5,962 bases of DNA, taken from positions 1-5,962 of IMG/VR virus record IMGVR_UViG_3300020041_000005. The stretch is one strand, 5' to 3'. The stretch comes from a virus. Below the pieces are notes generated by a model, which worked only from the letters and a program-made list of their open reading frames with translations, was not told where the DNA came from and did no database searches. Positions 2,918 through 5,962 of this stretch are shown here, piece by piece (the stretch's first letter is position 1; every line of letters begins with the position of its first letter). Made by a program: the position numbers and the translations under genes.

Positions 2918-4282
2918 ATGAGACTTATTGATTTTAAGTCCTACGTCGACCCCGTTTCCACAGGTGCTATACTCGGTGCTGCAGGCCTTGTCGCTGGTGG
3001 TCAGGTCGCCTCTGGCCTTTTTAAGCCATCCCTTAAGAGACAATGGAAGTATCAGCAAAAGCAGATGAAACTGCAACAGCAGTACGCTCTTGAGCAGATG
3101 CAGAAGCAAGGTGAGATTAATTACGCCAATTGGCAAAAGCAGTTTGACTATGAGAATGCTTACAATGACCCTTCGAAAGTTTTCGACCGTTATCTCAAAG
3201 CCGGTGTTACGCCCGCGGCTGTTCTTGGCTCTTCAGGTGTTGGCATTAACGCTACTATGTCTGGCGGCTCCGCTGGCTCTGTAGGCGCTTCTGGCCCCTC
3301 TGGCGGTTCATTCGACTTCTCTAGCCCTCTGCCTCCTGGTGTCGGTTCTGCTGCTGCCCAATCTGCCCTTGATGCTATGGGTGTCAATTCAACTATTGAG
3401 CGCAATAAGGCAGCCGCGAATCGTGATGATGCTGAGGCTGCGAATATTCGCAGTAATACTTTTGAGCCTGAGTTTAATAAGGCACGTGCCGAAGCCTCTA
3501 AGGCCGTTGACGAGGCTCTCGCTAATAAGGAGATCGAGGCTGCCGCGGCTCTCAAGTCTGAGCGTCTTTTGAATGATCTTAATAATACGTTGCTGTCTCT
3601 TACGATGGATGCTCGTGCTGATGAAATTAAGGCGCTTGCTGATACTGCTAAAGAAGAATTAAGACAATTGCGCATCCAGGGTTCGCAAATCGAGCGTATG
3701 GTTAATGCTCGAATCCTCGTCCTTGAGACGCAAAGCGCTCTTAACGAGTCCCTTTCTGGCCTTACCGCTGCCAACGAGGAGGGGCAACGTATTGATAATC
3801 TTAATCTCGCTAACGAACTCTCTCGCCAATGGGACAAGCGTTTTGACGTTGAAATTCCTAATCCTGCTTATAATGCGAATTTGCGCTCTAAGAACCCTGT
3901 CCAGCGTGCTAATCCTGGTCCGAAGGCGTTCAAAGTTTCCATGTCTCTCAAGGACTTTTACGATAAGACCGCTATTAATCAGTCTAAGGCTTCTGAGTTC
4001 CTTCCTGAAGAGGCTCGTGTCGCTCTTCGAAATGCAAAGCTTGATCCTTATATTGAGATCGGTAAGGCACTTGTCGGTGTTGCTGGTAGTCTTGGTGGTG
4101 CCTCCATCGTTCGTGGTGGCATGACCAGCGTAGCCAAAGGCTTCACCCAAACCTCTATTGGCAGTTCTTCCTCTTCGTCCCGTACTACCATGTATGACAG
4201 CGAAGGTAACGTTAGAGGCTATGTACTGAAAGAGATGTCCGGCAGTTCTCATGGTTCTTCTTCTCGTCGTAACCAATATTGA
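2918..4282 (+). CDS. VP2: Minor capsid / DNA pilot protein (Microviridae VP2, phiX174 H-like)
   Basis: This 454-aa ORF has an N-terminal Gly/Ala-rich hydrophobic segment (VSTGAILGAAGLVAGGQVASGLF) followed by a Q/K-rich stretch. FDYENAYNDPSKVFDRYLKAGVTPAAVLG (nt 3152-3229) resembles the YN-P...R...AG-NP motif of gokusho-/alpavirus VP2 as I recall it. A Gly/Ser linker follows. About 150 aa rich in Ala/Glu/Leu/Asn/Arg are probably helical or coiled-coil (nt ~3380-3832). A second Gly-rich hydrophobic segment (IGKALVGVAGSLGGASIV) and a Ser-rich tail complete it. Size and position after VP1 fit a pilot protein. Confidence 0.8.
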   Translation: MRLIDFKSYVDPVSTGAILGAAGLVAGGQVASGLFKPSLKRQWKYQQKQMKLQQQYALEQMQKQGEINYANWQKQFDYENAYNDPSKVFDRYLKAGVTPAAVLGSSGVGINATMSGGSAGSVGASGPSGGSFDFSSPLPPGVGSAAAQSALDAMGVNSTIERNKAAANRDDAEAANIRSNTFEPEFNKARAEASKAVDEALANKEIEAAAALKSERLLNDLNNTLLSLTMDARADEIKALADTAKEELRQLRIQGSQIERMVNARILVLETQSALNESLSGLTAANEEGQRIDNLNLANELSRQWDKRFDVEIPNPAYNANLRSKNPVQRANPGPKAFKVSMSLKDFYDKTAINQSKASEFLPEEARVALRNAKLDPYIEIGKALVGVAGSLGGASIVRGGMTSVAKGFTQTSIGSSSSSSRTTMYDSEGNVRGYVLKEMSGSSHGSSSRRNQY

Positions 4283-4328
4283 ACAGTTTTGCTCCGATTT
4301 TGAACTTCCGTTTTATTCTCTTTCGTTG

Positions 4329-4336
4329 TATATTTG
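4329..4336 (+). promoter_or_regulatory. Candidate Bacteroidota-type -7 promoter box (TATATTTG, fits TAnnTTTG) upstream of ORF 4363
   Basis: There is an exact match to TAnnTTTG 26 nt upstream of ATG 4363, in the 80-nt VP2/ORF105 spacer. TTTG motifs at 4288-4291 and 4298-4301 lie farther than the canonical -33 spacing. Confidence 0.3.
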
Positions 4337-4362
4337 TACTGTAAACCAATAACCACATTATC

Positions 4363-4691: not shown

Positions 4692-5015
4692 ATGACACAA
4701 ATTCACGTTGTTATTCGCCGAATTAATCCTGCCCTTAAGGTTGATTTTGTTCAGATAGGTTACATTAAGGATGGTCAGTTCGCCTCACTTCCTCTTGATA
4801 CTTTTGATCATACTCCTATTGTAGACTATGTCAATCATTCAACTATCTCTGATTCGCCTTATATTGATCATAGCGTTGTTTCTGCTCTCATAGAGGCTCT
4901 GATTGCGTATCCTGACTTTTCGGTCGAGTTTTTCGATAATACACTTGTTCTTATGTTTGATTTTAACCTTAATGCCGATGAAATCACGAAGGAAGAAAAA
5001 GGGAAAGGGAACTAA
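4692..5015 (+). CDS. Hypothetical acidic protein (107 aa), no family recognised
   Basis: The ATG lies 11 nt after the preceding stop and is co-oriented. The sequence is MTQIHVVIRRINPALKVDFVQIGYIKDGQF...FDFNLNADEITKEEKGKGN. It is the last ORF before the main non-coding region. The competing minus-strand ORF 4839..5246 is disfavoured. Confidence 0.55.
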   Translation: MTQIHVVIRRINPALKVDFVQIGYIKDGQFASLPLDTFDHTPIVDYVNHSTISDSPYIDHSVVSALIEALIAYPDFSVEFFDNTLVLMFDFNLNADEITKEEKGKGN

Positions 5016-5059
5016 GGTTGTTACCCGCCCGCTCGGTGGTAGAGTTCTTTGAATTAATT

Positions 5060-5124
5060 GAACCCCAGGGGACAGCCGAAGGCTGTGGCCACCGCGAAGC
5101 GGTAAGGTACCCCCCTGCGGGTTC
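5060..5124 (+). other. GC-rich three-way DNA/RNA secondary structure: a 12-bp stem enclosing two tandem GAA-triloop hairpins; candidate complementary-strand origin and/or terminator
   Basis: In the outer stem, GAACCCCAGGGG (5060-5071) pairs with CCCCTG-c-GGGTTC (5112-5124), giving 12 Watson-Crick pairs with one bulged C at 5118. Hairpin 1 is ACAGCC-GAA-GGCTGT (5072-5086; 6 bp). Hairpin 2 is ACCGC-GAA-GCGGT (5091-5103; 5 bp) and contains the exact heptamer GCGAAGC at 5094-5100. The element lies in the only long non-coding region (5016-5233), between the last ORF and rep, and is much more GC-rich than its surroundings. Confidence 0.6.
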
Positions 5125-5203
5125 TTCCATTTAACCCGTATATACCTTTTTTTATGGATTATTTCGATTTCTGCATTCGTTGTCGATTTGATTCTCTTGG
5201 TGT

Positions 5204-5211
5204 TAAATTTG
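5204..5211 (+). promoter_or_regulatory. Candidate Bacteroidota-type -7 promoter box (TAAATTTG, fits TAnnTTTG) upstream of rep
   Basis: There is an exact match to the TAnnTTTG consensus 22 nt upstream of ATG 5234 in an AT-rich spacer. A TTTG at 5187-5190 is only 13 nt upstream, closer than the expected -33 spacing, so only the -7 element is supported. Confidence 0.3.
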
Positions 5212-5233
5212 ATTGTCTTAAAAGTATTTTCTA

Positions 5234-5962
5234 ATGCCCTGTTCATCGCCCATATGGATACGTAATCGCCGTTATTTCGACAAGAAGAACCCTTGTCGTG
5301 ATGGCTCTGATGTTGCTAAATCTGCCTTAGCTCTTCGCCCCTGGGACGTCGCGCGCCAGTGGCTCATGGTCCCCTGCGGAAAATGCGAAGAGTGTTTGCG
5401 ACGTCAACGTAATGATTGGTTCGTTCGTCTAGAGCGTGAACTTGCTTATTGTAAGGCCAATAATCAACAGGCTATTTTTATTACTATAACTATCGCTCCT
5501 AAGCATTATAACGAAGCTTTGCTCGATCCTTCTCGATTTATTCGTCGATTTAATGAGCGCTTGCGGCATAAACTCGGCCATTCGTTCAAGCACGCCTTTT
5601 TTCAAGAGTTTGGTACACATCCTGAAATAGGAAATGAACCTCGATTGCATTTTCACGGTTTTCTGTTTGGCACAAACGTCCTCTATAATACGATTCGATC
5701 CGCTGTTCGAGATCTTGGCTTTGTGTGGCTAGCGAAGGCTACTCACAAGCGTGCTCGATACTGTGTCAAGTATGTTACTAAACAAATCCAGTTTAATCCC
5801 GAAGAAATTTCGGATAAATATGTTACTGTAGATGGAAAAGTTACACCTTTATCTTGCCTCCTCCAACATCGCCGTTATACGCGAAAATTCGTATCTGCTG
5901 GCGTTGGTGATTTTCTTGGTTATATGCCTCGCCCTTCTGCTCGTGTTTCGTCGTGGTCTTAT
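5234..5962 (+). CDS. VP4: Replication initiation protein (Microviridae VP4 / phiX174 A-like HUH endonuclease), N-terminal part; open at the window end and continues at nt 1
   Basis: This ORF is absent from the supplied track because it has no stop before the window end. ATG 5234 is the first start after an in-frame TAA at 5219-5221. My translation begins MPCSSPIWIRNRRYFDKK...VPCGKCEECLRRQRNDWFVRLERE, with the Cys motif at nt 5375-5395. IFITITIAP at 5474-5500 is RCR motif 1. PRLHFHGFLF contains the HUH triplet HFH at 5648-5656. ARYCVKYVTK places the two-tyrosine YxxKY motif at 5759-5773. Order and spacing are typical of microvirus Rep proteins. Confidence 0.93.
   Translation, partial: MPCSSPIWIRNRRYFDKKNPCRDGSDVAKSALALRPWDVARQWLMVPCGKCEECLRRQRNDWFVRLERELAYCKANNQQAIFITITIAPKHYNEALLDPSRFIRRFNERLRHKLGHSFKHAFFQEFGTHPEIGNEPRLHFHGFLFGTNVLYNTIRSAVRDLGFVWLAKATHKRARYCVKYVTKQIQFNPEEISDKYVTVDGKVTPLSCLLQHRRYTRKFVSAGVGDFLGYMPRPSARVSSWSY
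5849..5962. repeat. Terminal overlap copy 2 (identical to 1..114)
   Basis: Same as copy 1. The Rep frame (codon phase of ATG 5234) enters this copy in the phase that the 76..456 ORF uses in copy 1. Confidence 0.97.

Follow-up and report, generated by a model that had tools for sequence, protein, structure and literature searches.

A terminator-type hairpin with a conserved twin mini-hairpin insert upstream of rep in a microvirus with relatives from vertebrate guts

To our knowledge, a complementary-strand origin has been defined in no microvirus except the phiX174- and G4-like coliphages, and microvirus transcription signals are little known. Packaging in microviruses is coupled to Rep and not to a hairpin signal. 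In phiX174, the small gene J, which encodes a very basic DNA-binding protein, is followed a few nucleotides on by the GC-rich hairpin and T-rich tail GGGGC-TTCG-GCCCC TTACTT (coding strand), and in G4, gene J is likewise followed by GTGGGACC-GC-GGTCCCAC TCTATTT; both hairpins are taken here to be the T_J Rho-independent terminators, and that of phiX174, which has a UUCG loop, is a proven RNA-level element. The heptamer GCGAAGC occurs in phiX174 once, in the F-G intergenic region, and its occurrence in this phage had been correctly stated in an initial annotation of the locus described below; the F-G intergenic region holds the primosome site.

Mini-hairpins of the GNA and GNNA types are further documented at ssDNA priming sites, i.e., the oric of phages G4, St-1, and alpha3 and the ssiA of RSF1010 (Hirao 2026 review, PMC13037366). 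For instance, GCGAAAGC lies at hairpin I of the G4 oric, GCGTTAGC occurs in St-1 and alpha3 (PMC13037366), and CCGAAGG is found in RSF1010 ssiA (PMC13037366). Extraordinary thermal and nuclease stability is known for the isolated DNA heptamer, tandem mini-hairpins show poor SSB binding, and the RNA versions of mini-hairpins are much less stable than the DNA ones (PMC13037366). In reekeekee- and roodoodooviruses, conserved intergenic hairpins with compensatory substitutions stand before rep and have been suggested as minus-strand origins, with the explicit reservation that this function could not be certified (PMC9865509). In the Ff phages (M13/f1), hairpin A, the packaging signal, has a DNA-level role and is also implicated in terminating the upstream transcript (PMC10334589), which makes it a precedent for an ssDNA-phage hairpin that doubles as a terminator.

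The locus compared here with these systems belongs to a window of 5,962 nt (the whole stretch of DNA that was analysed), which represents the complete, circular genome of a microvirus; subtracting the 114-nt assembly overlap at its ends gives the real genome size of 5,848 nt. All genes are carried on the + strand, including the major capsid gene (460-2283; Pfam Phage_F match), a pilot-protein-like gene (2918-4282), and the replication initiator gene rep (VP4), whose ATG is at 5234 and whose reading frame runs on across the overlap to 1-453. In GenBank, its nearest relatives are unverified Microviridae found in the faeces of pig, musk-deer, and civet, and capsid relatives derive from gut viromes of rodent, lemur, tortoise, and human. 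No Shine-Dalgarno motif was found upstream of any gene start of the window genome, and this absence, combined with the presence of TAnnTTTG boxes, only hints at a Bacteroidota host. A VP4 profile search over representative genomes of 185,579 bacterial and archaeal species returned no relative and hence no prophage or host clue. Relatives were gathered via the upstream protein (60 IMG/VR loci), DNA similarity, DNA patterns, and capsid similarity, and the hairpin census covered 81 unique relative sequences, with hairpin assignment anchored on the T-tail, defined as at least 5 T within 10 nt 3' of the stem.

Positions 5060-5124 on the + strand form a Y-shaped three-way junction, in which a bulged 12-bp outer stem closes two mini-hairpins, H1 and H2. 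The 5' arm of the outer stem (GAACCC CAGGGG, 5060-5071) is identified by the MFE folds under DNA and RNA parameters, and the 3' arm (CCCCTG, the bulged C5118, and GGGTTC, 5112-5124) by MFE folds and covariation, such that 5060-5065 pair with 5119-5124 and 5066-5071 with 5112-5117. H1 (ACAGCC-GAA-GGCTGT, 5072-5086), identified by MFE folds and stem covariation, includes CCGAAGG at 5076-5082, i.e., the same heptamer as in RSF1010 ssiA; H2 (ACCGC-GAA-GCGGT, 5091-5103), identified by MFE folds and a compensated stem, contains an exact GCGAAGC at 5094-5100. Both have the features of a C-GNA-G hairpin, namely a G-N-A triloop, a 5'-C/G-3' closing pair, and a G-C stem. The two are connected by GGCC (5087-5090), which is invariant in all three-way-junction members, and H2 is linked to the 3' arm of the outer stem by AAGGTACC (5104-5111), which mostly reads AA(G/A)G(T/G/A)AC in relatives; an extra GCC/GGT pairing in the MFE fold is lost in two of them (L007 and L061). 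Directly 3' of the stem follows a T-rich tail, TTCCATTT (5125-5132), as a putative U-tract.

All of the stems reported in the initial annotation, including the exact GCGAAGC, are present at the coordinates it gave, and they fold better than shuffled sequence, a comparison that it had suggested. The MFE fold of 5058-5126 is exactly this junction under DNA and RNA parameters alike, with -21.6 kcal/mol for DNA (z -4.2; 1 of 200 shuffles as good) and -39.2 kcal/mol for RNA (z -4.4; equalled by 0 of 200 shuffles); over the entire 125 nt, z is less extreme, at -2.5 (DNA) and -2.3 (RNA). In 70-nt sliding DNA folds over the whole genome, the junction scores -21.6, whereas the genome-wide mean is -5.2 (sd 2.8) and the next-best site reaches -13.6; on either strand, no C-GNA-G or C-GNNA-G hairpin other than H1 and H2 has a stem of at least 4 bp. 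An Rfam covariance-model search (E up to 1) gave no match at the junction in the window and none in seven relatives, and ARAGORN detected no tRNA or tmRNA.

The surroundings of the structure are more densely coding than the initial annotation assumed when it took 5016-5140 for the main intergenic region: the true intergenic region is 5053-5153, and the designation holds there; 5016-5052 encode the C-terminus of a J-like protein, and 5154-5234 are an ORF remnant. The J-like gene (4978-5052, + strand), unannotated and revealed by the ORF listing and by codon-position variation among 74 relatives, overlaps the end of ORF 4692-5015, relative to which it lies in the +1 frame, encodes a very basic product of 24 aa (MKSRRKKKGKGTKVVTRPLGGRVL), and has its stop codon 7 nt upstream of the three-way junction. 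Codon entropy in the 74 relatives amounts to 0.115, 0.064, and 0.859 bits at positions 1, 2, and 3, which places the variation on third positions; amino-acid substitutions are limited to K/R and V/I, and the stop is always TGA or TAA. The ORF also occurs in the distant relatives L186-L191, where it is likewise unannotated. Pfam and PHROG searches with the J-like protein, orfU, and the small ORF returned no matches; by size, charge, and position, we infer a resemblance of the J-like ORF to the J or VP8 DNA-binding proteins. At this position, a conserved gene has been overlooked in the GenBank records of these genomes, and the seemingly "intergenic" conservation beside the structure is partly coding.

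On the downstream side, the small-ORF remnant of 26 codons (5154-5234, + strand) ends at the rep ATG; in relatives, the small ORF extends to at least 66 aa (MDYFDF...FDCLQS), and in L010, the closest relative, it is absent. The motif CCCGTATATACC (5135-5146, + strand), located between the structure and the small ORF, is kept in the three-way-junction group, reads C(C/T)CGTA(T/A)ATAC(C/T) in relatives, and is a possible candidate for a promoter or origin element. The possibility that the structure itself is protein-coding, by ORFs 5018-5134 (+), 4984-5130 (-), or 4839-5246 (-), was rejected because relatives show 1-nt indels, whole-loop replacement, and complete stem rewriting.

In 80 of the 81 unique relatives, a GC hairpin and then a T-rich tail follow the J-like stop, with a median start 7-8 nt past the stop. 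At least 5 T within the 10 nt after the stem were counted in all 18 unique three-way-junction sequences and in 62 of the 63 plain-hairpin relatives. The plain stem-loop found in these 63 of 81 sequences is exemplified by L017 (GGCCCCAGGAGA...TCTCCTGTGGGC TTTTTTG), and in L012 it consists of the window's own stem with an ordinary loop (GAACCCCAGGGG-ATATGCTT-CCCCTGAGGGTTC); plain relatives sharing the window's stem have the T-tail TTTTTATTT. Moreover, the covariance model R1, derived from the junction, aligns over its full length with L155, L154, and L012, the insert being the part that these lack (E 2e-5 to 9e-4). Because the same stem carries a plain loop in these relatives, the twin mini-hairpins are to be regarded as an insert in a hairpin loop. 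The succession of a J-like gene, a GC hairpin, and a T-rich tail, as at gene J of phiX174 and G4, leads to the outer stem being best read as an intrinsic terminator, and the stem and T-tail indeed look like an intrinsic (Rho-independent) terminator of presumed activity. The initial annotation had kept the terminator as a mere alternative, a ranking that is reversed by the homology of the outer stem to the plain hairpin and T-run of the relatives.

In the window, the sense-strand stem is GC-rich (12 bp, of which 9 are G-C) and begins 7 nt past the J-like stop; TTCCATTT comprises 5 T in 8, interrupted, which passes a loose threshold, against 4-8 consecutive T in plain-hairpin relatives. The hairpin departs from a simple, unbranched, short-loop form by its 40-nt insert with two hairpins, and a simple terminator scan omits it because it is branched; the same scan flags the unbranched homologous hairpins in L155 and L017. 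Branched terminators are unusual, and, given the branching and the poorer U-tract, termination at the window's hairpin may be weak. The layout is shared with T_J of phiX174 and its counterpart in G4; however, the hairpins of these two phages are plain, with loops of the RNA type or of minimal size, as opposed to a branched 65-nt structure, they have no sequence homology to the window, and gene J precedes the capsid gene in phiX174 and G4, whereas the J-like gene of the window precedes rep.

The three-way junction is kept in approximately 25 relatives, and its stems are conserved with covariation, which the initial annotation had suggested looking for. In a model-based alignment of 21 distinct sequences, 99.1% of the cells are paired and both-sided changes occur in 12 of 23 pairs; 0 of 500 shuffles reach the observed value on any of five measures, slid controls yield at most 3 such pairs, and a plain MAFFT alignment agrees, with 8 pairs showing double changes. 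The outer stem has double changes in 9 of its 12 pairs and is fully rewritten in L008, L038, and L070 (GAAGCAGGTGCGG/CCGCGCCTGCTTC) and in Tortoise microvirus 105, i.e., L187 (AAAATAGGGCGG/CCGCCCTATTTT). In the H1 stem, GC is exchanged for AU in 5 sequences and AU for GC in 1, and ACAGCC is replaced by ACAACC, ACGGCC, or GAGATC, with the partner arm changed each time. Similarly, the H2 stem is compensated as ACCCAC/GTGGGT in L038 and L070 and as ACCCGC/GCGGGT in L187. The parts that stay fixed among relatives are GGCC, the top of H2, and AA(G/A)G.AC. As for the GAA loops, whose conservation the initial annotation had suggested checking, the loop of H2 is GNA throughout (GAA across the family, GGA in L187), and the H1 loop varies between GAA, GTA (L185), AAC (L008, L061), AAA (L070), and ATA (L187). 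Tortoise microvirus 105, which was retrieved by capsid similarity alone, retains the junction (53.9 bits) with a wholly different outer stem and H1, yet with GGCC-ACCCGC-GGA-GCGGGT-AAAGTAC; this retention speaks for a junction that is old and constrained in sequence. A host-derived repeat was ruled out, since the exact 21-mer of H2 and its flanks is absent from the same genome set, which represents 185,579 bacterial and archaeal species, and, among 19 metagenome matches to the 20-mer, 6 belong to the same virus group in the same context and the other 13 lie in GC-rich, apparently bacterial sequence and look like chance.

Twin-hairpin modules of this kind are also met outside the terminator loop. 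Element B, a conserved stretch of about 130 nt downstream of the plain terminator in some 40 relatives, has a core of the same architecture, in which an outer stem closes GACGC-GNA-GCGTC and CRGCC-GTTA(A)-GGCYG; it shows 7 covarying pairs and GNA loops of GAA, GCA, GTA, and GGA, and is without a T-run. A third type, element C, occurs in five relatives. In bajarodmic virus 1104 (L186), there is zero intergenic DNA between the J-like gene and the small ORF, and a junction homologous to R1 is found at 2135-2223 (E 6.6e-5), without a T-run, at the 3' end of another gene in another intergenic region; this relocated junction is followed by a second hairpin and then by CCGTAAAATACC, a sequence similar to CCCGTATATACC of the window. 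Mini-hairpins with GAA and GGA loops occur in that same alternative intergenic region in other distant relatives. The free-standing twin-hairpin junctions of the relatives have C-GNA-G loops, are without a T-run, and always lie on the viral strand. Element B and the copy in bajarodmic virus 1104 thus show that the module can be separated from termination.

At the same time, the module is not an essential cis-element present in one copy per genome of the clade. No mini-hairpin module was found in any intergenic region of at least 12 complete circular relatives, which have the plain terminator hairpin only and one unstructured AT-rich intergenic region, and no hairpin was found at this gene junction in three more distant relatives. 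The absence from at least 12 complete genomes means that the module is dispensable and cannot be required as an origin throughout the clade; an absolute requirement for the module is excluded by the relatives that lack it. The observation that the junction, element B, and element C never co-occur was set aside as proof of equal function, because the three may be alleles of one recombining locus.

Like the oric of G4, St-1, and alpha3 and the ssiA of RSF1010, the locus has a cluster of highly stable hairpins on the strand present as ssDNA, and it shares with the oric and ssi signals mini-hairpin tips of the d(GCGNAGC) or d(GCGNNAGC) type; the GTTA loops in relatives of the window virus correspond to those of St-1 and alpha3. 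However, the window has a three-way junction where the G4-type oric has tandem stem-loops I-III, its module is dispensable in close relatives, as set against a G4-type oric or plasmid ssi signals, and a search of phiX174 and G4 with R1, filters off, gave at most 8.7 bits with E above 4, i.e., neither the G4 oric nor the phiX174 primosome site is homologous to the junction. With the reekeekee- and roodoodooviruses, the locus has in common conserved hairpins with compensatory changes upstream of rep; those viruses belong to another clade, with other sequences and simple hairpins, and neither terminator nesting nor GNA mini-hairpin modules are described for them (PMC9865509). The Ff phages are an unrelated family (Inoviridae), and their hairpin A is long and imperfect and not a three-way junction.

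Whether selection acts on DNA or on RNA cannot be separated by covariation or strand bias, because the viral ssDNA and the mRNA share the same sense. In a census of perfect-hairpin loops over the 81 intergenic regions, GNA triloops number 77 on the + strand against 2 on the opposite one, accompanied by 39 GTTA(A) loops and by T-rich loops, with no GNRA and no UUCG; in six distant relatives, mini-hairpins number 17 on + and 1 on -. The loop-type argument depends on a few independent modules that were inherited by many related genomes. A repertoire of GNA loops closed by 5'-C/G-3', GTTA(A) loops, and T-rich loops is suggestive, though not decisive, of a leaning to DNA.

The explanation preferred here, which is given about an even chance of being correct, is a composite of a terminator stem with an accessory twin mini-hairpin module acting on ssDNA, with a putative terminator activity and a putative role in DNA priming. 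The outer stem (5060-5071 with 5112-5124) and the tail at 5125-5132 would constitute a Rho-independent terminator that ends the structural-gene transcript, the loop of which would have been replaced by the conserved 40-nt insert (5072-5111), i.e., two mini-hairpins joined by GGCC, turning a plain hairpin into a three-way junction. The insert would belong to a set of exchangeable C-GNA-G twin-hairpin modules of a vertebrate-gut microvirus clade, fused into the terminator in the window, free-standing downstream of it as element B, or placed in the other intergenic region as in bajarodmic virus 1104. From its separability from termination, its strand specificity, and its DNA-hyperstable loops, we infer that the module acts on the viral ssDNA, where it may serve as an SSB-resistant landmark that helps host enzymes to start the complementary strand, as an accessory enhancer rather than an indispensable origin. 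A role as a complementary-strand origin is plausible, if short of probable.

The composite has to be weighed against readings that retain only one of its two levels. A pure complementary-strand origin, in which the junction acts only in the infecting ssDNA and the T-tail is incidental, would account for the most stable fold of the genome containing its only mini-hairpins, for DNA-type loops confined to the + strand, and for free-standing versions without a T-run, and it has precedents at the oric of G4 and alpha3 and at ssiA (PMC13037366) as well as in the hairpins upstream of rep that were proposed as minus-strand origins in other clades (PMC9865509); nonetheless, it is rather improbable, as the stem and T-tail are common to 62 plain-hairpin relatives and lie 7-8 nt past the stop, which is the grammar of a terminator, at least 12 complete genomes are without twin hairpins, some distant relatives have no hairpin here at all, and homology to the G4 oric or phiX174 site is absent. 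Conversely, the junction could be an RNA-only element at the 3' end of the late mRNA, functioning as a reinforced terminator, a block to 3' exonucleases, or a site for an RNA-binding protein. Sense transcription directly after the gene is considered certain, the fold as RNA is highly stable (-39.2 kcal/mol, z -4.4), a few G-U cells do occur in the stems, and the conserved single-stranded junction bases would suit recognition by a protein. This reading is nevertheless unlikely, considering that G-U pairs are rare (6 of 450 cells), that Rfam (E up to 1) offers no match in the window or seven relatives, that the loops are GNA and GTTA and not GNRA or UNCG, in contrast with the UUCG of phiX174 T_J, that the free-standing copies have no U-tract, and that mini-hairpins made of RNA are reportedly far less stable than those of DNA (PMC13037366).

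Two further proposals concern the insert as baggage and the locus as a regulator. On a tree of orfU, the neighbouring gene, the different types of intergenic region are interspersed, which implies that cassettes were exchanged or were repeatedly gained and lost; together with the dispensability of the module and the presence of different inserts in the same loop of other relatives (e.g., L189), this exchange would fit a functionless or selfish palindromic cassette that is tolerated in the terminator loop and spread by recombination. This reading is very unlikely, however, as H2 and the junction bases remain almost unchanged where the outer stem and H1 are rewritten (L008, L038, L070, L187) and stem changes are compensated; moreover, the core is absent from the genomes of 185,579 species, and its metagenome finds, barring apparent chance matches, are in viral context. 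The initial annotation had also raised a conformational switch, here taken as an attenuator controlling read-through into the small ORF and rep, by pairing 5023-5028 with 5117-5122, 5034-5039 with 5089-5094, and 5119-5123 with 5133-5137. These pairings do exist in the sequence, with 90-97% of cells pairable in close relatives, and the site between the structural genes and rep would be suitable; but double changes occur in none of the pairs, every shuffle gives the same counts, and relatives with other outer stems (L008, L038, L187) do not have the partner sequences. In addition, the arms 5023-5028 and 5034-5039 lie inside the J-like coding sequence, which explains the conservation of these two 5' arms. 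The absence of covariation weakly refutes the switch, which is scarcely credible as an explanation of the locus.

The base of the structure is ordinary, namely a terminator-type hairpin after a J-like gene, and the unusual part is the conserved twin mini-hairpin insert, whereas the best-supported reading of the whole is the dual element described above; if the ordinary part alone holds, the locus would be a decorated terminator of modest interest. More speculatively, and with a low level of confidence, the cassettes, the adjacent hairpin, and the CGTATATAC-like motif could together form a replication-control region that comprises a complementary-strand priming signal and possibly the Rep nick site. 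If true, this would be the first defined type of minus-strand origin outside the Bullavirinae, and one and the same stem would double as an RNA terminator and a DNA origin. The clade offers a concrete, covariation-backed candidate for a complementary-strand origin, and it provides a natural series of alleles at one locus, i.e., the terminator in its plain form, the form with twin mini-hairpins, the plain form accompanied by element B or C, and the relocated junction; by comparing them, one could test directly if the conversion of ssDNA to dsDNA is promoted by hyperstable DNA mini-hairpins.

The junction, i.e., the three-way fold at 5060-5124 that carries the GAA mini-hairpins H1 (5072-5086) and H2 (5091-5103), is preceded by a conserved, basic, J-like ORF of 24 aa (4978-5052, + strand), which lies in the +1 frame and overlaps the end of the ORF at 4692-5015. 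None of the inspected GenBank relatives (L001-L009 and L186-L191) has an annotation for this ORF. All of them carry it, and its product follows the pattern M(K/S)(A/S)R(R/K)KK...(S/T)(K/R)(V/I)V.RP.(G/L)G.V(L/F)*, with a more diverged version in L191. On the other side of the junction, a small ORF (5154-5234, + strand) precedes rep and retains 26 codons after an in-frame internal deletion, while the product in relatives comprises at least 66 aa (MDYFDFRPRF...RCRRDRPYIKFDCLQSMF). Because it is missing from the closest relative, L010, and is mostly replaced in L009, the small ORF appears to be dispensable or decaying. The exact 114-nt direct repeat at the window termini (1-114 = 5849-5962) is the overlap from circular assembly; the genome is thus 5,848 nt long, and rep (5234-5962) resumes at 115-453.

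Two TAnnTTTG boxes on the + strand are similar to the Bacteroides -7 promoter motif: TATATTTG (4329-4336), which falls within an AT-rich intergenic stretch (4283-4362) and is kept there in relatives, and TAAATTTG (5204-5211), 22 nt upstream of the rep ATG. The motif occurs 7 times in the entire window versus 4.3 expected, i.e., not above chance. These boxes, together with the lack of Shine-Dalgarno motifs, hint at a host from the Bacteroidota.

The 10-mer GAAGCGGTAA is common to the window (5096-5105), where it forms the 3' half of H2 and its flank, and to phiX174 (2314-2323), where it lies in the F-G intergenic region, which contains the primosome site. The chance of such sharing is roughly 1 in 100 (about 100 nt per side); no similarity between the two beyond this 10-mer was found, and the covariance model of the junction (R1) gave no match in phiX174.

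A junction homologous to that of the window is located elsewhere in bajarodmic virus 1104 (L186; PQ007377), at 2135-2223. It overlaps the 3' end of the ORF that follows the capsid gene by ~19 codons, and no T-run is present at this site. About 240 nt beyond it, a long hairpin (2461-2545) bears the tip TCCGC-GAA-GCGGA and is itself followed by TTTTCATTTT; the J-like gene and small ORF of this genome have no intergenic DNA between them.

Directly 3' of the junction, a second conserved hairpin is found in L008, L038, L070, L187 and L189 (e.g., 4255-4285 in L187, Tortoise microvirus 105), with the consensus G(A/G/T)TCGCA(G/T)T(C/T)(G/A)GC-TT(T)G-(G)C(C/T)(G/A)A-A-TCGA(T/C/A)C, inner-stem covariation from TCGGC/GCCGA to TTAGC/GCTAA, and a TATA-like motif on its 3' side. 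The order of hairpin and GTATA is found again in element B and, in weaker form, in the window (GGGTT...AACCC, then GTATATACC). In L013-L067 and L154/L161/L165, element B separates the plain terminator from the small ORF; it is structured and conserved, measures ~130 nt and lies about 45-200 nt past the J-like stop (e.g., 2870-3030 in L017). It comprises a hairpin, ACCGGC-TTT-GCCGGT (alternatively ACCGAA-TTTA-TTCGGT), followed by ATAT; a three-way junction that includes GACGC-GNA-GCGTC and CRGCC-GTTA(A)-GGCYG; and a further hairpin, TCGAAAG-TACCGT-CTTTCGA. Seven of its pairs covary, and no Rfam match was obtained for it.

Element C, a GC-rich insert unlike element B, lies 3' of the terminator in L020, L045, L057, L060 and L066 (…CGAGCCGTTAAGAGCGCGGCGAG…CAGCCCGCTTAGGCTCG). 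Apparently it sits inside a hairpin whose plain form occurs in L063 (CGAGCC-GTTA-GGCAC), and it looks like a further instance of a hairpin-loop insert. At the same post-J position, L189 (MG945272; about 5155-5245) has the stem AGAATCCCCGA/TCGGGGATTCT around a different insert of ~65 nt. Unrelated inserts seem to have enlarged the loop of this terminator hairpin on repeated occasions.
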